Assembly: GCA_965662895.1 (NCBI GenBank)
Contig: CBFIJH010000004.1
Span: 32,001 to 96,000, forward strand
Direction of reading: 5' to 3'
From: Candidatus Poseidoniaceae archaeon
Lineage (GTDB): Archaea; Thermoplasmatota; Poseidoniia; Poseidoniales; Poseidoniaceae
Length of the DNA: 64,000 nucleotides
The translations under genes and the position numbers were made by a program. Shown here piece by piece: positions 33,401-56,095 of this stretch; within the stretch, counting starts at the first letter, position 1; each line of letters begins with the position of its first letter. The notes beneath the pieces are model-generated. The model saw nothing but the letters and a program-made list of their open reading frames with translations. It did not search any database and was not told the origin of the DNA.

Positions 33401-36400
33401 CATGTCCGCCGTGTACCAGTATTCACCAAAGGTGTAATGCGTTATCTCGGAGATTTCGGATGAACTTACGTCCGCATTGTTGCGGAATGTGCTGTTCGCT
33501 GCTTGCTCTGAAACATAATCACCGTTTGAACAAATGTCCTCACTTGGATTGTCACAGGGTATCATTTCTCCATCCGCCCAAACTCGGTAATGGAGACCAA
33601 GCGATTCATCAGGTATACCATTCGAATCGAGAGGATATCCTCTGGACATGAATGTGTCACCTTTGTTCTTGAAAACTTCAAAGGAGTGGTCGACGACCAT
33701 ATCCCGCATATCATCCAAGGCCATACCCTCTCGGATAACGAGGCGTTCGAGTTCAGCGTATTGCTCAGGATTGTTCAAGCCATTCTTCATAGCAGTTTCA
33801 AATTGAGGTGTGAACGACAATTCACCGGTTTTTTCCACGTTGTACGTCAAGTCTCCGATGATAAGGAGTTGCGTAAACATGGCCACCAAATCGGTCTGAC
33901 TGCGCGCAAGCAGCATGTTTCCTGAGGCAGGAATTCCACTTTGGAAGTTGTCTGCTACGGACGGGTGCTCACCTGTGTTGAGTGCTTGGAATCCGTAATC
34001 CCACCAGGATACGAAGGCGGGTTTGTCACCAAATTTCATTTCACACAGACCTGAGCCGGATAACCAAATACCGTTTTCTTGATCGCAACCAGATTCATCG
34101 GTCACACCTTCGTGGTACCTGTCTTGTTCCGCTAACCATTGATGCGCATCGTTCCAATGTTGACCGTTAAATCCACTTCCGAACGAACCCATGTAAGCTC
34201 GGCCGCCAAAAGCCTCGTAATCTCGGCTGTCAAGAATAGACACGCCAAGTCCATCCCAACGCATAATGTCAGGGACAGTGTAGTAAAACGATTCGTCCAA
34301 GTCACTCTCGGCTGGTGAATTGCTTGGGATTGCTGAATCGAGACCGTAGGTGAGTTGTTGTCCCGAGAGCATGATCAGAACAAGAACAACTGCGGAAAAG
34401 GATGGTGTTCTCCAAACTGCACGACGTGCTCCTGCAATTCGCTCCGACGGCGTTCGAATTCCTGCACGACGCCAGGTTCGTACAAGATTGTTCCAATCAG
34501 CCCACTTCCAGAATCCAACAACACCTGCTGCACCCATCACGGCAACAACTGGTGTTGCGTTGAATAGGAATCGAGCAGCTGTCCACGACATGTAGGAAGC
34601 GGTAAAAATCCATACAGCAAAGACCAATGAGATTTGACTACGCTGGCTGAAAGCCCTCCACAGAGATGTCAAACCGACAACGAGCGCGAACACGAAGACG
34701 ATCGGTCCGAAACTTGCGAACATGTATCCACGGTCGGGAGCGTTCGCTTCCGCAACGGTTCCAAAAATCTTGGTCTTGGTGAAATAACCGCTACCTGTGA
34801 ACAAGACATCCCAAGCGTTGCTCAGATCCGTCAATTTCAGGACGTACAAGGTGGCCAAAAAGACCGTTGCACCTACGCCCAGTGTTCCTAGGACGAGCAA
34901 CCAAGGCTTGTCTCGGAATCCTGTGGTAATGTACATGATTACCACTGTAAACAGCAGAATGAACAAAAATGGTTGAAGACCAGTTCCATCGAGCACCAAA
35001 TTCATTTGTGGGTGAGCGTAGAATGGAAGTGCAATCAAAAGGTTCGTCAAAAGCATTGTCAGGAATAGTGTGCTGAGAATCGTTGAATCACGACGTCGGA
35101 ACATGTTCAGTGCAACTTGTGCTGCATAGGCCAAGAAGAGAATTGCCGGCCCAACAACGAACCCTTTCCAACCGAGGCTTGCAGTAGCGAATGCTACACC
35201 TGCCAAAACTGCGTTTGCCATGGCGTATTGTCGCTGCTGCGCTACAGCACCCATCGCTCGAAGCATATCGAGTGGACGAATCGATGTTGTGCGAACCAGT
35301 CGTTCCGAACCTGCGTATCGGACGGCACGAAGGTAAAACATGAAACCGAGCGAGATGAACAACATCACGAAGGAATCGTGGTCTGCGAGTCCCCACGTCG
35401 AGTGCGTGACGTGAGCTGGCATGAATGCGATTAACCACGCAGCGATGACACCAGCGGCCTTGCCAAAGTGGTCGCGTGCGATTGCAGCGACTGGCAAGAT
35501 TGTCAATGCCCCGAAGATTGCTGGAAGAGCAAGCATGCTCCACCACACTGCATCATCACCAAGGACGGGTTCCATAATCATCGCACCAATTGCGAGACAC
35601 CAGGTGAACAAAGGAGGACGTGGATTGATTCCGCCGAGCGGGTAGGCTCGATCGGCATCGAGAACCAAGTGCGCATTTTGAGCGAGGATGTAATCGACAA
35701 CGCGCTTCATGTACCATGGGTCAGAACCACCTGTGAGGTCAAAACCATCCGTCCCCAATGCGTGCATTGAAGGAACAGCATACCATTGAATTCGAATGAC
35801 GAAGCCGACAATAAACGCAACGGCTGTCAAGAGTCCTGCCCAATGGGCATTCCAAAATTGTCGAGCACCGCTTGGTCGATGTTCTTCGCGATTTGACCAA
35901 CCACCGTATTTTTCATGATTCCCGATGATCGAAATTGCTACACCGAGGAAGAACGTGATGGCGAGCCAAATCAGTGGAGCCCATGATTCTGCAAACGTTT
36001 CGTTGGTCCAGAATCCTTCTTCGTACCATGAGCCGATGAGATACAGACCCCAGAGTGATGAAAGCGTCATTGCACGTGTCAACCAGCGTTCAGCGACCAT
36101 ACCAGAAACGATGATGGCCACAATTCCTGTCAGAAGTGCGGAGTAATAGCCGACGAAGCCGTTTGCTTCAACGCCGCCGAGACCGCCCAAGCGTAGTCGA
36201 TCTGCAATCGTGCCTTGGTCGAAGTGCCAGATTGTGGCGAGATGGGCTGCTGCCCAAACAAAGAGTGCAATTTGCAGAGGAAGAGCTTGGCGATTCCAGC
36301 CTTCTTCGACTTTGTTGAATGAGAACCATCCCTTTTCTCCAGCAGGGTTCAGAAGACCACGGCCAGCGACACCGGCAAGCAGACCGAGAATGACGAAGAC

Positions 36401-42205: not shown

Positions 42206-43153
42206 TTACAGGCCAGGAGCGGCTTCACGCCATTCCTCTTCCTCGTCATCGGCATTGATGAAACGTCGACCGGCGACAGCAGCAGCCAAAGCCACCATGG
42301 AAAGTGCAGGAATGATTTCAAAGCCCGGAAGATAGACTCCACGAACATAGATTGTGATCATTTGTGATTCACGGTCACAGCCACCGTTCTTACAGGAGAA
42401 ATCCGACTCTGCGTAGAAGTCAAGCGTGTGGTACGCATCGCTCCAACCTTGTGTCTTTGGCGTGCGGACTTGAATTCGAACCTTCGCAGGAGCAACCATC
42501 GGCTCAACGTTGACCTTGCTGATTGGGATGTTGATGTTGAATCCTGCATCCTGAAGAGATTCACGGGAGTTTTCAGAGATTCCGACCTTCATGAAATCGA
42601 ATTGGTTTCCGAGGTTGTAAACTTTGAATTCAAAATCCTTGTCGGTCTTTGGCATCAGCTGAACGAACGGTTCGACCGCTTCGACTTGCAAAAGAGCGTA
42701 TTGTGTGATTGATACAATCATGTTTGCACCCGATGTTGCTTGGTTTGCAGGAGGAAGACCTTGTATTTCTTGGACACTGCCTTGGACGACAAGACTACGT
42801 GCTTGCATGGTCATGAATTGTTGTGCACGGACAACGACTTGGAAGTCTTCCTCACTGTTTGCCCCGACGTAAAGATCACCGGGCGCAGCGGCGGCAAGCC
42901 CGTCAGATGTAACAGAAAGGGCAACTTTTTCGATGTACGCCGTCGGGTTTGACGCCGTACAAGTCGTAAAGCCGACCAGTGTTGAACCAGGCTTAACATC
43001 GACCTTTATTTCTGCGGGCTGACACGTAATCGAAATCGCAGCAGTTGGTACTTGTGCCTGTGCAGGAACCGCAACGAGTAGCAAAGAAGCAAGGTAAATC
43101 ACAAGGACTGTAAAGGTACTCTTTCGTGTGGACATCGTGCTCACTAACTTCAT
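42206..43153 (-). CDS. Secreted Ig-like protein with a PGF-CTERM-like sorting signal (choice-of-anchor T-like)
   Basis: Signal peptide; C-terminal 'LPGFEIIPALSMVALAAAVAGRR'. Confidence 0.72.
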   Translation of the reverse strand: MKLVSTMSTRKSTFTVLVIYLASLLLVAVPAQAQVPTAAISITCQPAEIKVDVKPGSTLVGFTTCTASNPTAYIEKVALSVTSDGLAAAAPGDLYVGANSEEDFQVVVRAQQFMTMQARSLVVQGSVQEIQGLPPANQATSGANMIVSITQYALLQVEAVEPFVQLMPKTDKDFEFKVYNLGNQFDFMKVGISENSRESLQDAGFNINIPISKVNVEPMVAPAKVRIQVRTPKTQGWSDAYHTLDFYAESDFSCKNGGCDRESQMITIYVRGVYLPGFEIIPALSMVALAAAVAGRRFINADDEEEEWREAAPGL

Positions 43154-43213: not shown

Positions 43214-43287
43214 TGGGCCTGAAGGGATTTGAACCCTTGACCGCCCGGTTATGAGCCGGGTGCTCTAACCAACTAAGCTACAGGCCC
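43214..43287 (-). tRNA. tRNA with CAT anticodon, most likely tRNA-Ile2 (AUA-decoding) rather than Met
   Basis: GGGCCTG TAGCTTAGTTGGTTAGAGCA CCCGG-CTCATAA-CCGGG CGGTC AAGGG-TTCAAAT-CCCTT CAGGCCC A; Ile-like GGGCC acceptor; no encoded CCA. Confidence 0.93.
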
Positions 43288-43311: not shown

Positions 43312-44619
43312 TCATGAGTTTGCCGAATCAAACATTGCCAGAGAGGATTGGGAAGGTTTGGTTTTGGAACGTACCAATGCTTCGCATGCATCGCGAATTT
43401 GTTCGGGGACGAAAACAAGAATGCGTTCATCCGTTTGTGTTAGTGATCGGATGAGTGGAGAATGCTCTGCAGCATCACGGCCATCTTCGAGAATGATGCC
43501 TTGTTCATAAGGCATGTATCCACGCTTACGTATCGATGCCGTGATGAGGTCATGTTCCGCATCGAAGCCTTCCTTGCGAAGAACTTCAGCAACTTCATAT
43601 TTCACGACTTGAAACATCTCAGAGGTCAAGGATGAAATGCGCAGAGATTTGTGATAATCTCTTCGGGCTAGTAAGCGGGAAGCAAAACCGGACAACACTT
43701 GATCTTCATGGTTAGCAAAGCGTCCGATTGCAACTTTGATGTGCGAATCATGCAACGAGGCGTATTGCTCTGGAGTCAGCGATTGATTAGTTAGCATGTG
43801 CTGTATTTCTTCCTCGACCTCAAGTTGCCCAAGGGACACGAGTTCTTTTGCCCGAGAAAGCATCCGAACAAGGTAGGATTGCGTCAGCATGTTGACTTTG
43901 TGAAAGTAGACTTGATTGTACATGTGGTATCGGGTAACCAGGTAGGCCTCAATGGCCGGTAAGCCCCATGATTTAACGTACAGTCGGCCATCGTCGTTGA
44001 CGCGCAATGCCCTGATGACTCGGGCACTGTCAAACCCACCTATTTGTGCACCGGTATTGGCTTGGTCACGAATCATGTAATCCATGCGATCCACATCGAG
44101 CTGACTGCTAATAATTTCTTTGAGAAATGGAGCGATGGGTTCACCGTTGCATTCCAGTTGACCATCGAGAAGAGCAAAAAGACGTTGTTTACGTTCGACG
44201 CCGAGGACATCCTTGAGAACTTTCCCGATTTCGGAATCCTCGCTTTCAAGAAGAATCCTACCCCAGTGTTCATGAGAATGAAACGTCGCAAAAACCTCTG
44301 GTGTTTCCAAGAGGTGAGAATAGGGAGGGTGACCAATGTCGTGGAGAAGAGCACCAAGTTGTACAAGTTCTGCATCTGCATTGGATAAAAGACCCGGTTG
44401 GACTTCTTGAATCGAGGAAGTTAACTCACATGCGAGATGATATGCACCCAATGAGTGTGCGAAACGGGTGTGCGTAGCTGACGGGAAGACGAATTCGCAG
44501 GTCGAAAGTTGTTGGATGTTTCTTAATCGTTGAAACTCTTGGGTGTCAATGATGCGTGCGTGATGGGCCGGGACCAAGATGTCCCGATGAATTTCATCGC
44601 GAATCACACGGTCTCGCAT
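43312..44619 (-). CDS. HD-domain phosphohydrolase, SAMHD1/YwfO-like dNTP triphosphohydrolase family
   Basis: 'IRDEIH', 'FQRLRNIQQL', 'HTRFAHSLG', 'LLHDIGHPPYSH', 'LDVDRMDY' and 'MYNQVYFHK'. Start moved to ATG 44619. Confidence 0.9.
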   Translation of the reverse strand: MRDRVIRDEIHRDILVPAHHARIIDTQEFQRLRNIQQLSTCEFVFPSATHTRFAHSLGAYHLACELTSSIQEVQPGLLSNADAELVQLGALLHDIGHPPYSHLLETPEVFATFHSHEHWGRILLESEDSEIGKVLKDVLGVERKQRLFALLDGQLECNGEPIAPFLKEIISSQLDVDRMDYMIRDQANTGAQIGGFDSARVIRALRVNDDGRLYVKSWGLPAIEAYLVTRYHMYNQVYFHKVNMLTQSYLVRMLSRAKELVSLGQLEVEEEIQHMLTNQSLTPEQYASLHDSHIKVAIGRFANHEDQVLSGFASRLLARRDYHKSLRISSLTSEMFQVVKYEVAEVLRKEGFDAEHDLITASIRKRGYMPYEQGIILEDGRDAAEHSPLIRSLTQTDERILVFVPEQIRDACEALVRSKTKPSQSSLAMFDSANS

Positions 44620-44710
44620 AGTAAATGCTGTCAATGCATCGCATTTCAAGGCATCTCCTACCAACGAGGCCGAGGAAAAGGATATTCTCTCTAGAGGTTT
44701 ACGACGAATC

Positions 44711-46453
44711 ATGGCAGAAGGTCTCAAAGGCTTCCTTGCTCGACTGTCGACCGATGATCCCGAAACCAACGGTCCAAGATTATGGGTCATGTTTGCAATT
44801 TCCTTGTTTCTTGTTGCGACGCTCAACTGGTACGCAATGGTCCGGGAACCTTCCGTTGTCGACGTTGATGAGCTAACGGATTACGTCAATGAGGTCGTCA
44901 AGGTCGAAGGACAGCTTATCTCTTGGGTAGAAGATCCATACAATTCGGGCGACGACCGTCTCGACGCAATCATTGACGATGGCACTGGTGTCGTCGAACT
45001 TCGATGGTACCGTCCAGCGGAGCTGCCACCCATCGGCACGAATGTTACCGTCATTGGTGATGTCATCGAGTACGAAGGAAGGATGTGGCTTCAAGCGCTC
45101 GGTGCAGGAGCGATGAATTGGGACCAAGATGACATCCCAGATGCACCATTACTTTCAATTTCGGATGTTGCTCTCGAACCTGAGGCATATGCAGGTGAAG
45201 TGATTCAACTCACTGGGTTCCTTTCTGAATCAATTGCACCGGATGTGTCGTTCAACAGCGCATACCTCGGCGACCATCCTACCTACGGAAATTCAGAACA
45301 CCAGATGCACATGATCATGCATTCATCGACAGGTGAATGGATTGAATCAGGGTCGAAAGTCACCGTACAAGGAATCCTGTCTTACCAACAACGCGACCTT
45401 CGGTGGAGCATACACGTTCAAGGTCCTGAAATTCTTCTGGATCGAAATCATCCGGTTGAAATCCCATTGTTGGACTGGGCCGGCCAATCCGCATGGATGT
45501 ACCAATCTGGAAGTACCGTCGATGTCGCTGGTGTTCTTTCCATCGACGAGGGCGATTGGTGGCTAACCGGTTCTGCAGGCTCTCCGCTTTGTGTCTTGCC
45601 AAGTGACGATGATCGAGACAACGCTGAGCAATGGAGTGGACTTGCCATACAAATGCGAGGACGTTTGGTCTGGAATACGGCGATTTCTTCCTGGTGTTTG
45701 GATAAAGGTGGTTCAATGAACGAGGCATTAACTGCGACATCGAGCATCGATGACTTGTTGTTGCTTCTGAGCGCAAACCCGAGTGAAGCCCTTCAAGACT
45801 CGAACAAGCGGTATGTCGTTTCGGCCTACATGAAATACGCTCTGGAACCCAGTGTCGAAGACGAGGGCGCATACTTCGTCGATTCACCAGGCTACACACC
45901 GGGTTGGACGAGCATCGCCGTAACAATCCCGGGGCCAAGGTCTTCTTGGCTCGAAGCTGGACAGGAAATTGTCGCCAATGTTTCCGTTGCGTGGGATGAC
46001 GAAAACATGCGGGTAGAATTGCTTGTTCACGAATATTCAGAGGGACAAAAGGCCAATCCGATGAATCTTCTTTGGTCCGATGGTGCAACGAACTGGGGGT
46101 ACGACAAAAACAAGATTGTGCGAATCAATGGACTCGCTACAGAGGATAACGGAACGTGGTACCTTTCCGAGCCTGGCAGCGACAAGCGCATCCTCTTGCA
46201 GGCCGTGAACAATTGCATCGGATTGGACGAATTGCACGTTGGCACGGCGATGACATGGGAAGGTCGTCTGCGACAAGCAGAGGATGCAAATTCGTTGACA
46301 ATGGTCTACACATTAAACGACGCAGATGTCGATGATAACGACAATGATGGATTAAGCGACGCACTTGAATCAGCATTTGGTACAAGTTCCAACACGGAAG
46401 ATACGGATGGCGATGGTACGAGCGATCGTCAAGAATACATCGAACAATCCTAG
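44711..46453 (+). CDS. Membrane-anchored extracellular protein with about 5 tandem OB-fold-like repeats and C-terminal DxDxDG motifs
   Basis: TM at about aa 23-42; repeats begin 'NEVVKVEGQL', 'GEVIQLTGFL', 'GSTVDVAGVL', 'KRYVVSAYM' and 'KIVRINGLA'. Repeat 1 has the OB-like 'IIDDGTGVVEL...IGTNVTVIGDVIEYEG'. Confidence 0.7.
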   Translation: MAEGLKGFLARLSTDDPETNGPRLWVMFAISLFLVATLNWYAMVREPSVVDVDELTDYVNEVVKVEGQLISWVEDPYNSGDDRLDAIIDDGTGVVELRWYRPAELPPIGTNVTVIGDVIEYEGRMWLQALGAGAMNWDQDDIPDAPLLSISDVALEPEAYAGEVIQLTGFLSESIAPDVSFNSAYLGDHPTYGNSEHQMHMIMHSSTGEWIESGSKVTVQGILSYQQRDLRWSIHVQGPEILLDRNHPVEIPLLDWAGQSAWMYQSGSTVDVAGVLSIDEGDWWLTGSAGSPLCVLPSDDDRDNAEQWSGLAIQMRGRLVWNTAISSWCLDKGGSMNEALTATSSIDDLLLLLSANPSEALQDSNKRYVVSAYMKYALEPSVEDEGAYFVDSPGYTPGWTSIAVTIPGPRSSWLEAGQEIVANVSVAWDDENMRVELLVHEYSEGQKANPMNLLWSDGATNWGYDKNKIVRINGLATEDNGTWYLSEPGSDKRILLQAVNNCIGLDELHVGTAMTWEGRLRQAEDANSLTMVYTLNDADVDDNDNDGLSDALESAFGTSSNTEDTDGDGTSDRQEYIEQS

Positions 46454-46461
46454 GTGATTTG

Positions 46462-47964
46462 ATGATCGAAGCCTACTTCCATGAACTCTGGTGGCTCTTG
46501 GGCGCCTTGTTCTTTGGAGTCATGCTTGGTTCGCTCACAGGACTCATTCCAGGTTTTCACGTCAACAATGTTGCATTGATTCTCCTTGCTGTTTCTCCAG
46601 GATTGCTGGAATTGGGCATACCCCTATCAGCCGTCGCAGCGATTATTGTATCAACGGGAACCGTTCACACATTTTTGAATTACATTCCCTCTGCGCTCAT
46701 CGGCGCACCTGATGGAGATACAGCGTTATCGTTACTTCCAGGGCATCGGATGTTGCTTGCTGGTAATGCTGCACGTGGTGTTGCATGGTCAGCTCGAGGA
46801 TCCCAACTTGGTCTGTTTCTATCTTTGCCCCTTATCGTTGTTGCTCGAATTGCCTTCGGCCCTGAGCTCAATTGGTACGACGGACTTCGAGACTGGTTGC
46901 CCGTTATTCTTCTCGTGATATCCCTTCTGCTTCTCGCAACCGAAACCACCCGTCTTGATTGGCCGAAATGGGTACAAAAGGTAACGGGAAAGCGTCTCGG
47001 AAAGGACAGTCGGCTTGCTGGTTTCTTTGCTGCAACCGTCTTCTTCTTGCTTGCTGGATTGTACGGATGGGCTGTGTTCGAACTCCCGGTCGATAGCCCA
47101 GTAGGTATGCCATCGCCTTCCTTGTTGCTTCCGAGTTTAGCGGGTTTGTTTGGTATCGCGAACCTTCTCGACATCTATGCGACCACCAGCCATCTCCCTC
47201 CACAAAAAGAGAACTGGGATTTGCCCCCGGTTAAACCGCTCATTGCGCCGTGTTTCTGGTCAGCCGTTGCCGGTGCAAGTATGGGTGTATTGCCCGGTAT
47301 GACCGCATCCCAAGCAACCGTTCTCGTCATGGGTGGCCGCAATGTTGCGGCAAAGGTGCAAGGAAAGGAAGGATACGGTATGGACTGGGAAACCCGACGC
47401 TTAACGGAACTCAGCGATGAGGAATTGTTGGAAATTGCCGTTGCAGAAGCAGAGGATGGATACGAAGGTCCGCAAACGAAGCAAGATTTGGAAGTCATTG
47501 CGATTCTTTCAGCCGTAAACACAGCTGTCACAGTCATGGTCCTTGGATTCTTGTACATCATTGGTCGATCTCGTTCTGGTGCAACACTTGCCTTGAAAAT
47601 GATGTACCCGATTGAAACGTGGAACTCAACGCAGCCCACTGCCGACTTTGTGCGACTTCTCGCTGTAACGCTTGCAGCCGGAATCATGGCGATGCCGATC
47701 ATGAAAATTGTTGGGAAAGGCATGCTCAGGCTCCATGCTGCTATTCCTTTGCAATCAATGGTCATGGGCGTCATCATTTTCGTCACAGCATTGGTATGGC
47801 TTTCGACAGGATTCGTCGGCATTGGCGTCCTCATTGTCGGAACCATTCTCGGACTTATGCCTCCACGTATCGGGATTCGACGAAGCCACGGAATGGGAAT
47901 TATCCTCGTTCCCATTATGATTTACACCTTCGCACAGATGGCAGACAGCTTCGGTTTCATCTGA
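46462..47964 (+). CDS. Archaeal TctA-family (DUF112) multi-pass permease
   Basis: 'GSLTGLIPGFHVN', 'HTFLNYIPSALIGAPDGDTALSLLPGHRMLLAG', 'LAGLFG' and C-terminal 'IRRSHGMG'; GGTGA SD before ATG 46462. Confidence 0.88.
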   Translation: MIEAYFHELWWLLGALFFGVMLGSLTGLIPGFHVNNVALILLAVSPGLLELGIPLSAVAAIIVSTGTVHTFLNYIPSALIGAPDGDTALSLLPGHRMLLAGNAARGVAWSARGSQLGLFLSLPLIVVARIAFGPELNWYDGLRDWLPVILLVISLLLLATETTRLDWPKWVQKVTGKRLGKDSRLAGFFAATVFFLLAGLYGWAVFELPVDSPVGMPSPSLLLPSLAGLFGIANLLDIYATTSHLPPQKENWDLPPVKPLIAPCFWSAVAGASMGVLPGMTASQATVLVMGGRNVAAKVQGKEGYGMDWETRRLTELSDEELLEIAVAEAEDGYEGPQTKQDLEVIAILSAVNTAVTVMVLGFLYIIGRSRSGATLALKMMYPIETWNSTQPTADFVRLLAVTLAAGIMAMPIMKIVGKGMLRLHAAIPLQSMVMGVIIFVTALVWLSTGFVGIGVLIVGTILGLMPPRIGIRRSHGMGIILVPIMIYTFAQMADSFGFI

Positions 47965-48031
47965 GAGAATGAGGATTCTCCGTACCAAAAGATATGAGGG
48001 GGAAGGCGCTGGATGGAATCAGTGATGCCTT

Positions 48032-51000
48032 ATGCGTTTTGAAACAATTTTTCTCATCAGCCTGATGTTGTTGGTACCACTTACCCCATTGGTGGAACCT
48101 GCAGAAGCAACCTCGGCTCGCGCTCAGCCTTGCGGTGGTTCAGTTTGCATCAACGAAGTCATGCCGAATCCGAACGGGTACGATGATGCAGCATGGCCAA
48201 ATGGTGAGTGGCTCGAATTGTACAACGGTGGAACATCGTCTGTCGATGTACGAAATTGGTATTTCTCAAACAAGGCTTCGAGAATACTGACGCTGAATTC
48301 GGCTTCCATCGTTGGTTACAATGCAAGCAATCCATCAACATACACAATCGCTCCAGGCGATTACATGATTGTAGCGCGAAACGCCTCAACCAATTTCTAT
48401 GTTGCGAACTCGAATGATTTCATGACGCTGTACGATTCATCAAACGGTTGGGTTGATGAAGCGACATGGAATTCAACTTCAAGTGGAGTAAGTTTGGAGG
48501 AAGATCCATCAAATGCCTACAACGATTGGATACCTACGTCCAATCCGACCCCCGGTTCTGTCAACACTGGAGGAGGCGGAGGTACCGGTGGACCAACGTA
48601 TGCACAAAGCGATGTCATCATCAACGAAGTCATGGCAGATCCATGGCCAAGTTATGACAATGCTACCTGGCCTAGTGGTGAATGGGTTGAATTGTACAAC
48701 AACGGAACCTCGGCCATCGACCTAGCCGGATACTGGTTGCAAGATGTTGCTGGAAATATGATCACGCTCAATGAAAATCACCTGATTGGCGCATCGACTG
48801 ATGCCTCTTCCTTCCTCATCCATCCTCAAGAGACACGAATCGTTGCGGTGAACTCCACCACGAACAGCGGCGTCTTGAACAACGGACAAGAAACGTTGCG
48901 GTTGTATTTGGCAAACGGAAGCATCGGCCATGAGGTTCTGTGGAGTTCGAATCAACCCGGATTTTCACTCGAAGCCTCATCGACTGGAACAATGTGGCAA
49001 TACTCGACCTACCCGACTCCAAACGCCACGAACGCACCGAAAATCGAACAAATCACCTCAGCAGGCGATGTCGTCTTGAACGAAATTTTTCCAGTCAGCA
49101 CAATGGATGGAACCGCTGCGCCTGATGGTGAATGGGTCGAATTCTACAATGGTGGTATTGTTGATGTTGATCTGTATGGATGGTCAATCATTGATGGTAT
49201 GGGGAACGTTACCTTCCTCGATCCCGGTTCAATCGTTGTCAACAGTTCTCAAGGGAGCACGATGATTCACGCCGATGAGCGACGACTCGTTGAATTCACA
49301 GGCGACACGCGTCTCTGGGACAATTACAACCATCTCGTGATTCGAGATTCAACTGGAGCGATTGTCGATATGGGACATTACACGACCAATTACGGACCAG
49401 ACATCTCGTTGTTGCGAGGACAAAATTACCATGACCCGTGGACGCCATCGATTACGCCTTCACCGGGACAACCTGAACCCACACCGACGCCGACCACTGG
49501 TGATGTCAAAATCACGGAAGTTCTACCTGACGCTGTGGGAAGTGATTCGGCGTCCTACCCGAACGGTGAGTGGATTGAAATTCGAAACATGGGCACTGAA
49601 GAAGTCGATGTTGCCGGTTGGAGGTTCTCAGCCGAAAATCGAAACCTGATTCTTCATCAATACAACATGCCATCAAAATCGGACACTGTCCTCCAACCCG
49701 GAGAAACCGCACTAATCGCTCTCAATGGCACCTCCCAATTCTATCTCAAACATACAACACCTGACCAAATTTTCCTTAACGATGGCAACGGAGTGGTCGT
49801 CCACAGCGCTCAGTGGACACACACGCTCGAAGGTGGCTCTCTCATCAACAACACTGAATCTCATGCGGGTGCAGGGCCCAATGGAGCCAATGCACCCTCT
49901 TCATCAACAACTTGGGGTGTAGACGATTGGATCAACAGCGCTTGGGCAACTCCGGGAGAAGAAAACCCGAAATGGCCTGAATACACTGAAAGCGAGAATG
50001 TTTTGGTAACCGAGATCGCCACATCCTGTGACCTTCCGACATTCCAGCCAGCAGCTGATTGGATTGAGGTATACAATGACGGAGAATCCGAAGTCAATCT
50101 CAGTCGCTGGATTCTCCAAACCGACTACAGTTCCAATCCTCTCATGGGGCGTCAATTCATTGATGCAAGCATGGTTTGGGATTCAACATCCACGGATGTC
50201 CTCTTGCAACCTATGGAACGAATGGTTGTCGAACTTGAACACGATATTTTCGGACCTGATTTGGACGATGTCAGCGCGATGAATCTCCTCAATCCTGACG
50301 GTGACCTCGTTCTCACGATAGCACCCCCTGTTTCGCATCTGAGTACAACTTGCGCGACGTATGGATACAACTCGACCAATGCTGAATGGCTGGAGTTCCT
50401 GTGGCCAACTCCGGGCTCGCCTGAGCCAGATGCGACAATGATGGCTTCGCTTGATGACATCAAATTTAGTTCCATTATGTGGGACGGTGTCTCCTCGATA
50501 TCAACCGAAATGGAATTTTTCGAATTAACGAACATCGGGACGGATACAGCCATTCTCAATGGTTGGTCAATACGTCGAATTGCTTCAGATGGCACATCGT
50601 TTGAATCGCAAATAACCAACCTCGAAATCGATGCTACCTCCTCTGTCAAGTTGTCAAATGACGTTACAGCCCTCGAGTTGTTTGAAGGCGGAGAGATTCT
50701 TGACATGAGTGCTGCCATGGAAAACCCAATCTATCTTCTCGACAGTGGAATGGCACTGCAACTGATTCATCCAACTGGAGTCGTTGCTGATACGATTGTC
50801 TACAAGAATGGGCCCGTCGAAAGTGAAGGTTGGAGTGGCGTGGCCCTCTCTGAACCTGTGAGTGGTATTGACAACCTCATCCTCTACCGAGGAGATGGTT
50901 GTGGGATCTTAACAGATACCAACCAATCCACCGATTGGCACCAACGGTGGGGACGGTTGGGTGCGAGCGATTTCTGTGCCGAAAGTGGATTCGATGATGC

Positions 51001-52921
51001 AACAACGGTGACGCCGCTAATCGCTCCCGAACACGGGCTGATGGACATTCTGAATTGGATTGATGGCGCACAATCCTCCCTTCACGTCCACCTTTACATC
51101 CTGCAATCGAGCGAAATCGCTCAAGCATTGGTCGATGCGAAGAATCGTGGAGTCGATGTCGTTGTTGTTCTCAATGAACCTGAGGATTGGTGGAATTCCA
51201 ACGATAAACAAGCACAGCAGGCGTATGCGCATTCGTTGAAACAATCGGGCATTGATGTTCATTGGTTTGGCGGCTCTGGTGACGACCCCTATCTCTACCT
51301 CCATTCAAAAGTCGCAGTGAGGGACGATTCTTCCGTGTGGATTGGTTCCGGGAACTGGAAACCATCCTCCTTGCCGTACGACGGAGATCGAGGCAATCGT
51401 GATTGGGGACTTCTGATTGAGAGCGTCCAACTTGCCAACATCGTTCGATCGAATATGGCGTACGACGAGACGTCCAATTACGTCCTCGATGTATCGTCCA
51501 CTGCCCCGACGAATTCCTATGTCATTCCCGAGGCACAAGAGATCAATCAAGCAACAGCGCAAGCCCTTACTGGGACGTTTAGCGGCCAGTTGCTGACGTG
51601 CCCGGATGACTGTGTTGAAGGTTTAACCGATCTGATTGTATCCGCTGATGACGAGATCTTGCTCTCATTGCAATACCTCGATTTGGATTGGAAATGGGGC
51701 TGGGGCGAGAATCCTTTGATTTCTGCCCTTGAACAAGCTGCAATCGATGGTGTTGCTATACGTCTCATCATCAACGGGGCTTATCTCGACGAGGACATTC
51801 AGGATGTTGTCGATCAAATCAACAACGATTGGAACATCACCAATGGTTGGGATGCATCAGCCGTCATCATGAGCGAAGATGACGATGTCATGAAGTTGCA
51901 CAACAAAGGAGCCATTGTTGATGGTGAGTCCGTTCTCATTTCAAGCATCAACTGGGGCGATTCAGCGATGGTTCGAAATCGTGAAATGGGCCTCATTGTT
52001 ACCTCATCCGAAGTCGCTGCTCCGTTCCTTGAATCGTGGTACGCTGATTGGAACCGTTTGGACAATGTCACGGATACGGACAACGATGGGATGCCAGACA
52101 TCTTTGAAGTGAACAATGGATTGAACCGGACTGTTTCGGTCCACAATGGTGTTTTGGAAGCGGACATGGACAACGATAACGATGGATTGTCCAATCTTGA
52201 TGAGTACATGCTCGGAGGTCATCCACTGAATCCTGATACGGACGGTGATTGTATTCCTGATGCTGTTGAAGTAAGTTGGGCACAAACAACCGCTCTTGAT
52301 CCAAGCGTTGAAGACGTTTCGCCAGAAGATGCAATCAATCGCGCAGATGCTGATGGTGACGGTACAAATGAGGCGGATGCATTGGGTTGTGATCTAGGTG
52401 GAATTGACCCTATTGATACAAACGACGACCAGACAAACGATACGAGCACAGATGATGACAACGATGGCGTGTTGGATGTGAATGATGAATGTCCAGATAC
52501 GCCTGCAAACACACCGACCGATGTGAGTGGTTGTTCTTCTGAACAACGCAATCAGAAAGCAGGTGATGCGGCTGGTGAGGCTGACGAAGGATTCGGAGAA
52601 AATTTCATGCTGATTCTAATGCTTGGAGGCCTACTCTTACTTATCGGGGCTGTGTACGGCATTGTTCAATCTCGCAAAGAAAATGAGGCAACTAAGGATT
52701 GGGTCACCGAACAACATATTGACGACGTTGTTGGTACGGAAGCTCAATGGGAGCAGCCTGTTCTTGATGGAAGAGGTGAAGAAACAGATTCAGGACTTGC
52801 GAAGGAACTTGATCGCTTCCCCGGTTGGACCGAGGAGATGCTGCAGCAATACTTGGACCATGGCTGGACGCTGGACCAGTTGGAGGAATACTACCAACAA
52901 CAGGTCGCAGAACAGGGATAA
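48032..52921 (+). CDS. Surface enzyme: six lamin-tail-like domains + phospholipase D-superfamily domain (2 HKD) + TSP3-like repeats + TM
   Basis: Six 'INEV..P....EW.ELYN'-type units; 'HSKVAVRD..WIGSGNW' and 'HNKGAIVD..ISSINW..NRE'; DxDxDG repeats; TM and Trp-rich tail. Confidence 0.88.
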   Translation: MRFETIFLISLMLLVPLTPLVEPAEATSARAQPCGGSVCINEVMPNPNGYDDAAWPNGEWLELYNGGTSSVDVRNWYFSNKASRILTLNSASIVGYNASNPSTYTIAPGDYMIVARNASTNFYVANSNDFMTLYDSSNGWVDEATWNSTSSGVSLEEDPSNAYNDWIPTSNPTPGSVNTGGGGGTGGPTYAQSDVIINEVMADPWPSYDNATWPSGEWVELYNNGTSAIDLAGYWLQDVAGNMITLNENHLIGASTDASSFLIHPQETRIVAVNSTTNSGVLNNGQETLRLYLANGSIGHEVLWSSNQPGFSLEASSTGTMWQYSTYPTPNATNAPKIEQITSAGDVVLNEIFPVSTMDGTAAPDGEWVEFYNGGIVDVDLYGWSIIDGMGNVTFLDPGSIVVNSSQGSTMIHADERRLVEFTGDTRLWDNYNHLVIRDSTGAIVDMGHYTTNYGPDISLLRGQNYHDPWTPSITPSPGQPEPTPTPTTGDVKITEVLPDAVGSDSASYPNGEWIEIRNMGTEEVDVAGWRFSAENRNLILHQYNMPSKSDTVLQPGETALIALNGTSQFYLKHTTPDQIFLNDGNGVVVHSAQWTHTLEGGSLINNTESHAGAGPNGANAPSSSTTWGVDDWINSAWATPGEENPKWPEYTESENVLVTEIATSCDLPTFQPAADWIEVYNDGESEVNLSRWILQTDYSSNPLMGRQFIDASMVWDSTSTDVLLQPMERMVVELEHDIFGPDLDDVSAMNLLNPDGDLVLTIAPPVSHLSTTCATYGYNSTNAEWLEFLWPTPGSPEPDATMMASLDDIKFSSIMWDGVSSISTEMEFFELTNIGTDTAILNGWSIRRIASDGTSFESQITNLEIDATSSVKLSNDVTALELFEGGEILDMSAAMENPIYLLDSGMALQLIHPTGVVADTIVYKNGPVESEGWSGVALSEPVSGIDNLILYRGDGCGILTDTNQSTDWHQRWGRLGASDFCAESGFDDATTVTPLIAPEHGLMDILNWIDGAQSSLHVHLYILQSSEIAQALVDAKNRGVDVVVVLNEPEDWWNSNDKQAQQAYAHSLKQSGIDVHWFGGSGDDPYLYLHSKVAVRDDSSVWIGSGNWKPSSLPYDGDRGNRDWGLLIESVQLANIVRSNMAYDETSNYVLDVSSTAPTNSYVIPEAQEINQATAQALTGTFSGQLLTCPDDCVEGLTDLIVSADDEILLSLQYLDLDWKWGWGENPLISALEQAAIDGVAIRLIINGAYLDEDIQDVVDQINNDWNITNGWDASAVIMSEDDDVMKLHNKGAIVDGESVLISSINWGDSAMVRNREMGLIVTSSEVAAPFLESWYADWNRLDNVTDTDNDGMPDIFEVNNGLNRTVSVHNGVLEADMDNDNDGLSNLDEYMLGGHPLNPDTDGDCIPDAVEVSWAQTTALDPSVEDVSPEDAINRADADGDGTNEADALGCDLGGIDPIDTNDDQTNDTSTDDDNDGVLDVNDECPDTPANTPTDVSGCSSEQRNQKAGDAAGEADEGFGENFMLILMLGGLLLLIGAVYGIVQSRKENEATKDWVTEQHIDDVVGTEAQWEQPVLDGRGEETDSGLAKELDRFPGWTEEMLQQYLDHGWTLDQLEEYYQQQVAEQG

Positions 52922-52961
52922 GTCGCGTAACCTTGACAAAGGACCACACCCTAGGTATTCC

Positions 52962-53702
52962 ATGGCCTACAACTCGTCGAACCCTGTCTTCCAACCAGCC
53001 TTTTGGAATTCGATTCAAGGCAATGACCGAATGACCCTTGAAGGGACACTGCAAAAAACCGGCATTTTGTTTGGTATGGCAACAATCAGTGCTGTCGGAT
53101 CGATTGCACTCGGATTCATCATGCCGTCCCTCCTTTATCCACTAATGATCTTGGGTATGTTTGGCACGATTGGCATGGGGGTATTCTTGATGTTTGCTCG
53201 CCCGGCTGAACCAACAGGATTTGTGCTTGCTTACGCAACGCTCGAAGGTCTGTTTATCGGACCTCTTACGCTCGTGTTCGAGGTGTTCTATCCAGGTATA
53301 GCGATTCAGGCGGGGCTTGCAACCTTCGGGGTTGTTGCTTCTATGCTCACCATCTACTCTCTAGGTATTCTACGTCCAACACCTACATTCAACAAGATTG
53401 TCTTCACCCTAACCGGTTCAATCATGCTGATGTACATGATTAACATATTCCTCTACTTCCTGACTCCCTGGACGATACCCTTCCTTCACTCCTCGGGACC
53501 GATTGGAATTGGGATTAGTGTATTCATCATTATCGTTGCGTCAATGATGTTGATTTCCAACTTCGGCATGATTCATGCTGGCGTTCGAATGGGGGCACCG
53601 AAGAAGCAAGAATGGTGGGGCGCTTTCGGAATCATGGTGACGGTAATTTGGTTGTATTTCGAAATGCTTCGCTTGATTGCCAAACTCCGCGACTCAAGGT
53701 GA
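52962..53702 (+). CDS. Bax inhibitor-1/YccA family membrane protein
   Basis: 'SSNPVF', 'MTLEGTLQKT', 'YATLEGLFIG', 'YPGIAIQA' and 'GAPKKQEWWGAFGIMVTVIWLYFEMLRL'. Start moved to ATG 52962. Confidence 0.9.
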   Translation: MAYNSSNPVFQPAFWNSIQGNDRMTLEGTLQKTGILFGMATISAVGSIALGFIMPSLLYPLMILGMFGTIGMGVFLMFARPAEPTGFVLAYATLEGLFIGPLTLVFEVFYPGIAIQAGLATFGVVASMLTIYSLGILRPTPTFNKIVFTLTGSIMLMYMINIFLYFLTPWTIPFLHSSGPIGIGISVFIIIVASMMLISNFGMIHAGVRMGAPKKQEWWGAFGIMVTVIWLYFEMLRLIAKLRDSR

Positions 53703-53706
53703 TACG

Positions 53707-54669
53707 TTGGCACGTCCTCTGCCCATCGCTGATCTCAATGATTTTCTATCCGGTGATGAACAACGAATTCAAGCGTTCATCCAAACGGTCGGAGATTCGC
53801 TTGCAGACATTGGGTTCTTTGCCCTGACCAATCACGGTATTGATCTTGAATTAATCGAGGCCACCTACGATGTGGCTGAATCATTCTTTTTGCTTGAGGA
53901 ATCTGTGAAGCATCAATATGCGAAACCAGAAATTTCTCACCAACGTGGTTACACTGCTTTTGGTGTTGAACATGCAAAAGACAATCCTGCTCCAGACCTC
54001 AAAGAATTCTGGCAGACTGGAAGAGGTCAGCAAGGAAGTGAAACAGATACAAAATATCCGATGAATGTCTGGCCGAACCGGCACATCCCCGGTTTCGAGG
54101 AAAAAGTTGACAACTTGTACAACCGAATGGAGGAAATCTCCAATCAATTGCTTTCCGCTTGCAGCATCTACCTTGGCAAAGCGTCCACTTGGCTTCCTTC
54201 AATGGCTGAAAGAGGGAACACAATCATGCGAATAATCCACTATCCGCCTCTTGATTCGAACACGCCTGAAGGTGCGGTTCGCTCAGCGGCTCACGAGGAC
54301 ATCAATTTCATCACCTTATTGATGACTGCAACTGCTGCAGGCCTTCAGGTCATGGATCATGATGGGACATGGATTGATGTTGTAGGAAATCATGAACAAA
54401 TCATTGTTGATTCTGGAGATATGATTCAGAATTTGACCAACGGTTTGTTCAAGTCGACGACGCATCGGGTTGTTAACCCTGGCGACCCAACACAACGACG
54501 TTTCTCGATGCCCATGTTTGTTCACCCACGAAACGAGATTGATCTGACGCCACTACCCGAATTTATCGACCGAACCAGTGGTTCGGCAGATTTCCCATCA
54601 ATTACTGCTGGTGAGTATCTTCATCAACGACTTGCTGAAATTGGATTGGTATCAATTGACGAGGGTTGA
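53707..54669 (+). CDS. 2-oxoglutarate/Fe(II) oxygenase, isopenicillin-N-synthase-like family
   Basis: 'GFFALTNHG', 'RGY', 'DLKE', 'RIIHYPP', HxD 'HED', distal His 'THRV' and RxS 'RFS'. TTG start at 53707 after a GGTGA SD. Confidence 0.9.
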   Translation: MARPLPIADLNDFLSGDEQRIQAFIQTVGDSLADIGFFALTNHGIDLELIEATYDVAESFFLLEESVKHQYAKPEISHQRGYTAFGVEHAKDNPAPDLKEFWQTGRGQQGSETDTKYPMNVWPNRHIPGFEEKVDNLYNRMEEISNQLLSACSIYLGKASTWLPSMAERGNTIMRIIHYPPLDSNTPEGAVRSAAHEDINFITLLMTATAAGLQVMDHDGTWIDVVGNHEQIIVDSGDMIQNLTNGLFKSTTHRVVNPGDPTQRRFSMPMFVHPRNEIDLTPLPEFIDRTSGSADFPSITAGEYLHQRLAEIGLVSIDEG

Positions 54670-54674
54670 AGTCA

Positions 54675-55946
54675 ATGCATATTCCAAATTTGCTTGCCAA
54701 AAAACGGGACGGGCATGGGCTCGAGCAACGAGAAATCGAGTGGTTTATCCAACATCTTCATGAGATTCCGAATGAACAAATTGGTGCATTTTTGATGGCC
54801 TGCCAAATCAATGGTTTGAATGCTGAGGAAACAACATACCTCACCAAGGCCATGCTCGACCAAGGAAAACGCCTTTCGAATCGAGACGGGGCTATCGACA
54901 AACACTCAACAGGTGGCGTTGGTGATAAAATGAGCCTCATCCTTGCTCCTGCATTGCGTGCCTGTGGAGCAATCGTGCCAATGTTGGCGGGAAGAGGATT
55001 GGCGCATACTGGAGGGACCATCGACAAACTGGAGGCGATTCCAGGCTTCAACACGGGACTAAGCATTGAACAAATGGAACACAATCCGTGTTTTATTTCG
55101 CGCCAAACCGATGAGATTGCTCCAACCGATTCCATCCTTTACGCAATTCGTGATGTTACAGCAACGGTTCCGTGTATTGGTTTGATCACTGCATCCATTC
55201 TTTCAAAGAAGGCTGCGGAAGGAATCCAAGCCCTCGTGCTCGATGTCAAATATGGCCGAGCTGCATTTATGCAACATTCAGATGATGCAAGAAAACTTGC
55301 AAAATCGATGATTCGTGTTGGCACTGAACTCGGAATTGAAGTTACGGCTCAACTTACAGAAATGGATCATCCAATCGGCAACATGCTTGGAAACAGTCAT
55401 GAAATTGTTGAATCGATTCAGTGTCTCAAAGGCCAAGGACCTGTTGATACCATGGAATTGGTGCATGCTCAAGCAAATGCATTGGGTTTTGAAGTTTCAG
55501 AAGTCATCGCAAACGGTTCAGCGCTTGAAGAATTCAGGCGAATGCTGGAACGTCAAGATGTTGACGCCCTTACCGCTCAGAAACTCATCGATGAGCCTTG
55601 GAGCGTGTTGGAGCGTGCACCCCAGCAATACGCAATACTCTCCGAAAAATCCGGATATGTAGCGGATATGGATGCCCTAGCAATCGGTCAAGTTCTTTGC
55701 GAAGCAGGCGCTGGTCGCTCGATGCAAGGTGATGACATCGACCATGGAGTAGGCATTGAAATTCATCATCGCATCGGTTCAAAGATCGAAGAAGATGATG
55801 TTATTCTAACGCTCGATGGCCCATTTGGCCTCGATGTTCACCTCCTTCAGCGATTGAAAGATTCGATTACAATCTCCGATTATCAAGTTGGTGTTGCTTC
55901 AAGGATTCTTGAAAGTCTAACAATTGACGATGGCTCAACGACTTGA
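54675..55946 (+). CDS. deoA: Thymidine/pyrimidine-nucleoside phosphorylase (bacterial type)
   Basis: 'KKRDG', 'DKHSTGGVGDK', 'GRGLAHTGGTIDKLE', 'RDVTATV', 'ASILSKK' and 'LDVKYG'; no archaeal AMP-phosphorylase N-terminal extension. Confidence 0.92.
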   Translation: MHIPNLLAKKRDGHGLEQREIEWFIQHLHEIPNEQIGAFLMACQINGLNAEETTYLTKAMLDQGKRLSNRDGAIDKHSTGGVGDKMSLILAPALRACGAIVPMLAGRGLAHTGGTIDKLEAIPGFNTGLSIEQMEHNPCFISRQTDEIAPTDSILYAIRDVTATVPCIGLITASILSKKAAEGIQALVLDVKYGRAAFMQHSDDARKLAKSMIRVGTELGIEVTAQLTEMDHPIGNMLGNSHEIVESIQCLKGQGPVDTMELVHAQANALGFEVSEVIANGSALEEFRRMLERQDVDALTAQKLIDEPWSVLERAPQQYAILSEKSGYVADMDALAIGQVLCEAGAGRSMQGDDIDHGVGIEIHHRIGSKIEEDDVILTLDGPFGLDVHLLQRLKDSITISDYQVGVASRILESLTIDDGSTT

Positions 55947-55989
55947 ACCGATGGAAGCCGTCATAAAGGAGATGTTGCTGGCCAAACTC

Positions 55990-56062
55990 GCCGATTTAGC
56001 TTAGTTGGTGGAGCGTGGGACTGTTAATCCCAAGGTCGTGGGTTCGAGCCCCACAATCGGCG
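55990..56062 (+). tRNA. tRNA-Asn(GTT)
   Basis: GCCGATT TAGCTTAGTTGGTGGAGCG TGGGA-CTGTTAA-TCCCA AGGTC GTGGG-TTCGAGC-CCCAC AATCGGC G; no CCA. Confidence 0.95.
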
Positions 56063-56095
56063 TAAATTGAACTCCAACCATAACGAGGTGAAAAC

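Follow-up and report, generated by a model that had tools for sequence, protein, structure and literature searches.

The membrane channel through which archaea take up DNA is an open question in the account of Fonseca et al. (2023, PMC10133366), where the sole candidate is a TctA-like protein together with an OB-fold partner, a proposal resting on knock-outs in two methanogens. In Methanococcus maripaludis, the gene MMJJ_13020, which encodes an OB-fold protein with a single transmembrane (TM) segment, adjoins MMJJ_13030, which encodes the TctA-like protein. The in-frame deletion of either gene abolishes natural transformation, and complementation restores it (PMC10133366). In Methanoculleus thermophilus, the TctA homologue is likewise essential, and the same account gives no clear homologue of MMJJ_13020 for this organism. 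The TctA-like protein has been proposed as the missing archaeal DNA transporter, and the nuclease candidate of M. maripaludis is a thermonuclease encoded at an unlinked position (PMC10133366). The present analysis concerns a locus in which such a pair stands before a surface enzyme of the phospholipase D (PLD) superfamily and a nucleoside phosphorylase. The locus lies in a stretch of 64,000 nucleotides from Candidatus Poseidoniaceae archaeon (assembly GCA_965662895.1, contig CBFIJH010000004.1, positions 32,001 to 96,000), referred to as the window, whose positions serve as coordinates; gene starts were picked by rule.

Another group of described systems is formed by the extracellular nucleases. 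Lamin-tail domains (LTDs) occur in characterised members such as ExeM. In the part of the literature that deals with this enzyme (PMC6085458), the function of the LTD is given as unknown, and the domain is dispensable in vivo.

The window locus consists of two adjoining modules and is not one complete pathway. Module A contains the genes of an OB-fold protein and of a TctA permease, and module B extends from a gene of an LTD-PLD enzyme to a gene of a thymidine or pyrimidine-nucleoside phosphorylase (DeoA). The chances that these two co-oriented modules both act on extracellular nucleic acid are judged to be about even. The OB-TctA pair itself has been known from methanogens since 2023. New are its near-universal presence across another phylum, its form with five OB domains, its linkage to a PLD enzyme with six LTDs and to DeoA, and the fusions of the PLD enzyme with PhoX. 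Three results, namely this wide presence, the location of the pair just ahead of a surface enzyme from the nuclease branch of the PLD superfamily in one order, and the PhoX fusions of that enzyme in some members, jointly offer independent support from context for the handling of nucleic acid by the pair.

Marine Group II, to which the original prediction assigns the host, comprises the planktonic archaea that predominate in the surface ocean. Such archaea, commonly regarded as degraders of proteins and lipids, may also import or mine dissolved DNA, with phosphorus as the most plausible gain. Two genome or transcriptome papers on the group use none of the words nuclease, phospholipase, tricarboxyl-, lamin and thymidine in their main texts. 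A literature search returned nothing relevant that links Marine Group II to thymidine phosphorylase, or TctA to Thermoplasmatota, and word searches brought up no account of the present arrangement for the group.

The comparison covers three families of the window's order, denoted f1, f2 and f3, and the sister family f4; genera are denoted by g and single loci by L. The surroundings of DeoA, about 19 kb, were compared in 40 genomes from the three families. Counts across these kin genomes are not independent. Since metagenome-assembled genomes are concerned, and the genome of the window is 92% complete, absences are to be read as genes not found.

Two modules and their predicted action on nucleic acid

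The first gene of module A (44711..46453, + strand) encodes a protein of 580 amino acids. Its open reading frame (ORF) has no above-threshold Pfam match, and a sequence search of the protein against the PDB returned nothing meaningful. The AlphaFold2 (AF2) model, built with 29 homologues and reaching a predicted local distance difference test score (pLDDT) of 82, contains a TM helix at residues 17-44 and five beta-barrel domains. The best Foldseek match of the model is p204 HIN (6e-11), followed by RADX, CST, TEBP, RPA, LEF-3, POT1 and SSB, and these top matches are all tandem-OB proteins binding DNA or nucleic acid. The sequence contains one hydrophobic segment and ends with TSP3-type calcium-binding repeats. 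From the model, the gene product is predicted to be a single-pass membrane protein with five extracellular OB-fold domains.

The second gene (46459/46462..47964, + strand; PF01970, 3.4e-45) encodes the TctA permease. It is the sole copy in the genome of the window and the most conserved protein of the block, with an identity of 95-99% within the genus and 52-60% across the order. The binding protein TctC (PF03401) has no match in the genome. Among the scanned ORFs of the cluster there is no Pfam match to TctB, for which no dedicated search was made.

The pairing of both genes recurs near-universally across the phylum, well beyond the order of the window. Within the order, the OB and TctA genes are adjacent and co-directional in 36 of the 40 loci. 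A profile of the OB protein detected it in 58 of the 63 sampled genomes of f1 and f3 and in none of eight genomes of f4, and it gave weak matches in other families of the phylum. Six of the weak matches were fetched, and all six, ORFs of 212-467 amino acids, lie directly upstream of a TctA gene on the same strand, the TctA identity being 33-37%. A TctA-profile search of species representatives yielded 80 loci, 78 of the Thermoplasmatota type and two of Ca. Alkanophaga. In 74 of these 80 loci, many of which belong to kin genomes and are not independent, a co-directional ORF ending a few bp upstream of TctA matches a hidden Markov model (HMM) of the small partners. The OB partners have one N-terminal hydrophobic segment, and two of them match PF01336 at or above its cut-off (36.3 and 27.3 bits versus 27). 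The neighbours of the pair outside the order vary and include CDC48, DUF2240 and phosphoenolpyruvate synthase.

In one distant genome (L108:2710-7578), a gene of a Rad51/RadB-like ATPase is located directly upstream of the OB-TctA pair. About 1 kb downstream of the pair, there are genes of a helix-hairpin-helix (HHH_5) protein and of a metallo-beta-lactamase-fold protein, which echo ComEA and the nuclease domain of ComEC, respectively.

Module B begins with the gene of a 1629-amino-acid protein (48032..52921, + strand), in which Pfam detects LTD in six stretches and PLDc_2 in two. Besides a signal peptide, six LTDs and two HKD motifs, the protein carries calcium-binding repeats and, at its C-terminus, a TM anchor with a short tail; from this layout, it is predicted to be anchored to and displayed on the cell surface. 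The pattern HxK...D...GSxN occurs twice, and both HKD motifs are invariant in all 30 aligned homologues. The closest PDB sequences to the PLD region are Nuc (2.7e-9), Zucchini (3e-7) and NucT (2e-6); at E <= 0.01, the search returned only Nuc, Zucchini/mitoPLD and NucT (four distinct sequences) and no lipase. The NCBIfam models rank DrmC (3e-22) and NucT (2e-14) ahead of ClsB (only 1e-6), and PADLOC likewise reports DrmC (1e-21). In the model of this region (pLDDT 91), the nearest folds are the single-stranded DNA (ssDNA) exonucleases PLD3 and PLD4 bound to ssDNA (3.6e-21), which account for nearly all of the top 20 fold matches. These similarities indicate that the LTD-PLD enzyme is most likely a nuclease or phosphodiesterase, with a nuclease favoured over a lipase.

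The last gene of module B (54666..55946, + strand) encodes DeoA, which contains Glycos_trans_3N, Glycos_transf_3 and PYNP_C. It exceeds the cut-off of NF004490 (405 bits versus 269) and falls just under that of TIGR02644 (399 versus 409). DeoA follows the colinear PLD gene in 39 of the 40 loci. In f3, the stop of PLD overlaps the start of DeoA by 4 bp in three loci; elsewhere, wherever the two are direct neighbours, no more than 30 bp separate them, as measured from heuristically chosen starts.

A link to phosphorus, added here beyond the original prediction, comes from the relatives. Two of the 23 scanned PLD homologues, both from f3 (L033:5263-9858, - strand, and L041:9364-13944, + strand), carry the alkaline phosphatase PhoX (1e-28) between two LTDs and the PLD domains, resulting in LTDx2-PhoX-PLDx2 fusions. 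The size classes of the PLD proteins in genera g11, g13 and g14 (about 1010-1065 versus about 1526-1594 amino acids) suggest more such fusions. The gene of a PHO4-PhoU_div phosphate transporter immediately precedes PLD, on the same strand, in three loci of genus g4. In the interval from TctA to PLD, the opposite strand of g4 loci encodes PhoU-type regulators (PhoU and MazE-type), TauE and, in L019, a PstS-like protein; the whole phosphate gene set is located at L016:4172-7415, L017:3414-7459 and L019:1050-7454. The genome of the window has a stand-alone PhoX of 819 amino acids on another contig, which is 65% identical to the fused PhoX domain. Because of the PhoX fusions and the PHO4 neighbours, the LTD-PLD enzyme is tied to phosphate scavenging.

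The stand-alone PhoX is found on contig C1:194508-198500 (L192:5509-9501) and has an N-terminal region of 285 amino acids without a Pfam match. A gene of a SelO protein adenylyltransferase starts 3 bp after it.

From this context, we infer the substrate, the direction of transport and the coupling of the two modules. The membrane-tethered array of five OB domains would hold nucleic acid at the cell surface, and the adjacent TctA permease, by analogy to the Methanococcus genetics, would move DNA or oligonucleotides across the membrane. The surface-anchored PLD phosphodiesterase would cut DNA or RNA outside the cell. Phosphate would be released by PhoX, whether fused to the PLD enzyme, as in some relatives, or encoded elsewhere, as in this genome, and the thymidine phosphorylase would split pyrimidine nucleosides inside the cell. 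The likely pay-off would be phosphorus, plus bases and sugars, and natural transformation could be a by-product or an alternative purpose. The stronger idea, in which TctA in this clade truly imports nucleic acid as part of a complete DNA-harvesting line from the surface to the cytoplasm, is possible, though on balance doubtful. An equally tentative standing applies to the order of such a line, which would lead from the five-OB tether through the TctA channel, the LTD-PLD nuclease and PhoX to the nucleoside phosphorylase. If true, this would make these archaea naturally competent and, at the same time, users of foraged DNA as a source of phosphorus. For the proposed archaeal counterpart of ComEC, the physical link between the pair and a nuclease would then provide a first piece of evidence from gene context beyond the methanogens.

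Three steps of the original prediction, according to which DNA is bound by the OB-fold protein, imported by TctA and cut by the PLD enzyme, gain from these comparisons. The first two agree with the M. maripaludis pair that is essential for transformation in the account of PMC10133366, and with the conservation of the pairing beyond the order. For the third, cutting is favoured by the nearest sequences (Nuc, Zucchini, NucT and DrmC), the nearest folds (PLD3/PLD4) and the predicted surface anchoring.

Gene order, missing salvage steps and rival explanations

Several observations weigh against a common action of the modules on nucleic acid, and they are collected here with the explanations that they favour. 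The substrates known for transporters of the TctA family are small carboxylates, and DNA transport by any TctA is unproven. The likeness of the window pair to MMJJ_13020 and MMJJ_13030 is one of Pfam family and architecture rather than of direct sequence comparison. In the second phylum, that of Ca. Alkanophaga, TctA occurs in 120 of 151 genomes, and an OB partner was found upstream by an HMM of four small partners in only one of 40 TctA loci, in a scan that covered co-directional ORFs whose ends lie no more than about 250 bp from the start of TctA. Ten further upstream ORFs of this phylum have no OB Pfam match, except for a weak DUF4131 match on the one positive locus. Such a rarity of the OB partner fits M. 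thermophilus, for which PMC10133366 reports the TctA homologue without a clear MMJJ_13020 homologue.

The fate of the nucleosides raises a further difficulty. The original prediction spoke of a complete salvage pathway and suggested looking for deoB and deoC elsewhere in the genome, and neither was found. For deoB, TIGR01696 has no match in the genome of the window, an archaeal PGM-type mutase not having been looked for. The two PF01791 matches that could represent deoC are other aldolases (PRK06852 and ADH synthase). Thymidine kinase, the 5'-nucleotidase C domain and Amidohydro_2, the family of isoorotate decarboxylase (IDCase; PF04909), likewise have no match in this genome. No downstream route for deoxyribose-1-phosphate or thymine was thus found in it, and the salvage is not complete. 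The location of DeoA has a plainer reason in f1, offered by its nucleotide-synthesis neighbours purD, guaA-C and purE; in f3, guaA is about 10 kb from DeoA.

The explanation that survives best among the rivals states that two unrelated modules stand side by side through inherited gene order, with the HD, BI-1 and 2-oxoglutarate (2OG) oxygenase genes as bystanders. The OB-TctA pair would then serve DNA uptake or an unknown transport, and PLD-DeoA would be a separate unit for phosphate scavenging and nucleosides. This explanation is regarded as rather unlikely, although the synteny control speaks for it. For this control, stretches of about 99 kb surrounding the block were taken from two f3 genomes and one f1 genome and compared with the 32 window ORFs of at least 150 amino acids. 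Each of the f3 genomes keeps 21 of the 32 in colinear order, among them four of the seven cluster genes versus 17 of the 25 others, so that conservation of the cluster does not exceed that of its surroundings. The conservation of the gene neighbourhood, proposed as a check in the original prediction, is formally present in 39 of the 40 loci; it is nevertheless trivial and does not discriminate between the explanations, because the whole window is macro-syntenic. The conserved adjacency of modules A and B may therefore be inherited gene order.

The long-range synteny across the whole 64-kb window is itself striking, given protein identities of 25-70%.

Other arrangements also separate the modules. 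In g4, 3.4-4.2 kb of oppositely oriented genes split TctA from PLD. The inserts and neighbours show that the two modules form separate transcription units in at least some genomes. Four of the 40 loci are without OB-TctA: two are cut by contig ends, in one (L019 of g4) the pair is not found within 7.5 kb, and in one (L037) DeoA stands alone. In genome G059, PLD and DeoA are on different contigs. Outside the order, neither a nuclease nor DeoA was found beside OB-TctA in the 12 loci with scanned neighbours.

Against inherited order alone speaks the joint presence and absence of the genes. Of 121 genomes sampled in the order, 99 contain DeoA. PLD and DeoA occur together in 97 genomes and are jointly missing from 19, and the five discordant cases (concordance 116 of 121) are mostly in fragmented assemblies. 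Module A follows this pattern. TctA is also missing in four of the five block-negative genomes tested, the fifth having TctA at a contig end, and in genus g16, OB was found in none of three genomes and PLD and DeoA in none of seven. Four block-negative genomes retain the left flank, and what comes next differs between genera: an anchor protein and tRNA(CAT) are found in one and an HD-like gene in two, and the last has neither. More than one loss event is hinted at because these leftover junctions differ. In addition, OB folds of the DNA-binding kind and the Nuc-like PLD independently point to nucleic acid.

A second explanation replaces the substrate of both modules. The PLD enzyme would be a true phospholipase or a general phosphodiesterase that removes phosphate or head groups from lipids and from other organic phosphodiesters, TctA would import a small organic anion with the OB protein as its tethered binding partner, and DNA would not be a substrate. 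The carboxylate substrates of the TctA family would suit this explanation, and the PLD fold also matches the phospholipases PLD1/2 and Streptomyces PLD (1e-19 to 1e-17), at a level only 2-3 orders of magnitude below PLD3/PLD4. Its main hints are a CD36-like gene, which adjoins PLD in four f3 loci, and a thiolase gene between TctA and PLD in an f2 locus. The PhoX and PHO4 links fit any source of organic phosphorus, and the LTD, whose function is given as unknown, is a domain that ExeM can do without in vivo (PMC6085458, as above). The opposite is indicated by the ranking of the PLD matches, in which the PDB sequences include nucleases of the Nuc, Zucchini/mitoPLD and NucT kind only, the DrmC and NucT models precede ClsB, and PLD3/PLD4 dominate the folds. 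The top matches of the OB model are only nucleic-acid binders, TctC was not found in the genome, and the gene translationally coupled to PLD in f3 is that of a pyrimidine-nucleoside phosphorylase. A lipid or another phosphodiester as the substrate is consequently held to be distinctly unlikely.

The CD36-like gene is an extra gene of f3, located between TctA and PLD and encoding 916-949 amino acids with a short CD36-family match (about 37 bits, above the cut-off). It is found at L032:8019-10772, L033:9966-12815, L038:8091-10841 and L041:6492-9266. A CD36-like domain is unusual in archaea; a homologue with 29% identity is encoded on contig C21 of the genome of the window.

The weakest explanation, an anti-virus defence locus with a DrmC-like PLD nuclease and a dNTP-depleting HD dGTPase, draws on the PADLOC matches (DrmC, 1e-21; dGTPase, 1.8e-11) and the NCBIfam matches to DrmC and an anti-phage dGTPase, and it was rejected as very improbable on the surface topology of the PLD protein, which, being extracellular by its signal peptide, six LTDs, calcium-binding repeats and C-terminal anchor, would be unable to act on DNA inside the cell; moreover, the scores are far below the family cut-offs (79 versus 133 and 31 versus 400), no other DISARM genes are present, and the locus is a stable core region rather than a variable island.

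Neighbouring genes and tRNA borders

Between PLD and DeoA, two further genes are encoded in the window. The first (52962..53702, + strand; PF12811, 3e-61) codes for a BaxI_1 (BI-1-like) polytopic membrane protein and is present in all 29 loci of f1 and in none of the 11 of f2 and f3. The second (53677..54669, + strand; DIOX_N and 2OG-FeII_Oxy in Pfam) codes for a 2OG oxygenase, found in all 29 loci of f1 and in two of the ten of f3. Both genes are lineage-specific inserts, and the oxygenase is accessory. The PDB matches of the latter are 3oox (6e-54), 3on7 (1e-40) and thymine dioxygenase 5c3p (1.5e-31), so the fungal thymine dioxygenase is its best characterised relative, with two uncharacterised bacterial proteins being much closer. 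The original prediction assumed that this enzyme oxidises the base released by DeoA. The enzyme resembles thymine dioxygenase, but the lineage-specific distribution and the missing IDCase do not support this assumption. A thymine-to-uracil pathway was considered and rejected, as no PF04909 match exists in the genome.

In genus g3 (L010-L015), the identity of DeoA to the window protein is 63-66% in two genomes and 43-50% in four, and the neighbouring 2OG gene stays 61-72% identical. This pattern suggests a replacement of DeoA in place.

To the left of the block, divergent from the OB gene, lies a gene of an HD and HD_assoc_2 protein (43312..44826, - strand; likely start M70 at 44619). Its PDB matches (2o6i, 3e-45; SAMHD1, 1e-25) place it in the SAMHD1/EF1143 family of dNTP triphosphohydrolases; the PADLOC dGTPase match reaches 1.8e-11, and the NCBIfam dGTPase models remain far below their cut-offs (39.5 versus 152). 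The original prediction let this protein dephosphorylate the products of the nuclease. Such a role is not borne out, because enzymes of this family act on deoxynucleoside triphosphates (dNTPs) and not on monophosphates. The gene lies beside the block in f1 and f2 and in none of the ten f3 loci, and genomes that have lost the block can retain an HD-like gene. The HD protein is probably not part of the system.

The block is flanked by two tRNA genes detected with ARAGORN, both facing outward relative to the gene cluster. The left one (43214..43287, - strand) is a tRNA(CAU), probably tRNA-Ile2, and the right one (55989..56063, + strand) is tRNA-Asn(GUU), a conserved right border in f1. The D arm and anticodon arm of the former differ at only two positions from those of the tRNA-Ile(GAT) of the genome, and the sole other CAT tRNA found is marked as an initiator by A1-U72 and GGG/CCC; because of both observations, the Ile2 label of the original prediction is plausible. 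The tRNA(CAT) occupies the same place in relatives as a conserved left border, and in f3 it is located directly upstream of OB. With refined starts, the intergenic gaps of the cluster are 8, 67 and 40 bp, followed by two junctions of at most 5 bp or overlapping. The genes, domains, short gaps and both tRNAs were thus all found where the original prediction had placed them. A mobile island bracketed by tRNAs was also considered and rejected, as the base composition is flat across the locus (GC content 0.46-0.51) and conservation throughout the order extends to the tRNAs and flanks. Rather than marking the borders of an island, the tRNAs belong to the conserved syntenic backbone.

A gene of a 'choice-of-anchor T' surface protein with a weak Heimdall-CTERM-type tail (42206-43153, - strand) adjoins tRNA(CAT) and is kept at the same spot in f1, f2 and four of the ten f3 loci. 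Elsewhere in the window, three giant ORFs form a trio (3198-8585, 8635-14376 and 27401-36949, all on the - strand). Those of 1795 and 1913 amino acids have no Pfam match, and that of 3182 amino acids contains an STT3 oligosaccharyltransferase domain and a CarboxypepD_reg domain. An ORF of 343 amino acids (540-1571, - strand) is a fusion of Peptidase_C15 (pyroglutamyl peptidase) with a NUDIX hydrolase domain.

Comparison with known systems

The closest described system is the M. maripaludis pair introduced above. Both arrangements have a gene of an OB-fold protein with a single TM segment, followed by a polytopic protein of the TctA family, and no TctB or TctC has been found with either pair. 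The PF01970 family is also matched in Methanocaldococcus jannaschii. They differ in that the OB protein of the window has five OB domains in 580 amino acids as well as calcium-binding repeats, and in that a surface nuclease-like enzyme and a nucleoside phosphorylase come after the pair. Four matches to T2SSE-family ATPases above the cut-off are present in the genome of the window, with pilus and archaellum not distinguished.

The logic of the bacterial ComEA/ComEC machinery for DNA uptake recurs here, with an OB domain that would bind DNA outside the cell, a candidate polytopic membrane channel and an accompanying nuclease-like enzyme. The OB partners of TctA match DUF4131, the N-terminal TM and OB domain of ComEC, below the cut-off. 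Unlike in ComEC, there is no Competence (PF03772) or metallo-beta-lactamase domain, and Pfam assigns only TctA to the permease. The channel candidate has the fold of the TctA-family secondary transporters, and the parts are distributed over separate proteins.

With the TctABC transporters, the window locus shares the TctA subunit family (PF01970). It differs in that the genome has no TctC match and an OB-fold partner replaces the binding protein. A further difference is a hydrophilic acidic loop inserted in the window TctA after about residue 295. The loop is about 55 amino acids long here, about 12 in forms of 446 amino acids, and longer in f3 (L032-L041), where the proteins span 551-724 amino acids.

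Fungal thymidine salvage, which uses thymine 7-hydroxylase and IDCase, offers a parallel for the end of module B, as a 2OG gene resembling thymine dioxygenase directly precedes the thymidine phosphorylase gene. In the window, unlike in the fungal pathway, no Amidohydro_2/IDCase was found, and the 2OG gene is not in most f3 loci.

The PLD enzyme itself shares its HKD chemistry with Nuc, NucT of Helicobacter, Zucchini and PLD3/PLD4, which are its nearest relatives by sequence and by fold. NucT is linked to DNA uptake and purine salvage. Unlike these relatives, the window enzyme has two HKD domains in one chain within a surface protein of 1629 amino acids. In its overall layout, it resembles the LTD-bearing nucleases of the ExeM/NucH type that marine bacteria, among them DNA foragers, place outside the cell (PMC6085458; PMC8289736), and which have a signal peptide, one or more lamin-tail domains and a C-terminal hydrophobic anchor. 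These are surface enzymes thought to degrade extracellular DNA for nutrients, and ExeM also contains OB folds. The LTD-PLD enzyme differs from them by tandem HKD domains of the PLD superfamily in place of an EEP domain, with only LTD and PLDc_2 detected, and by six LTDs instead of one, OB folds on a separate protein and an archaeal host.

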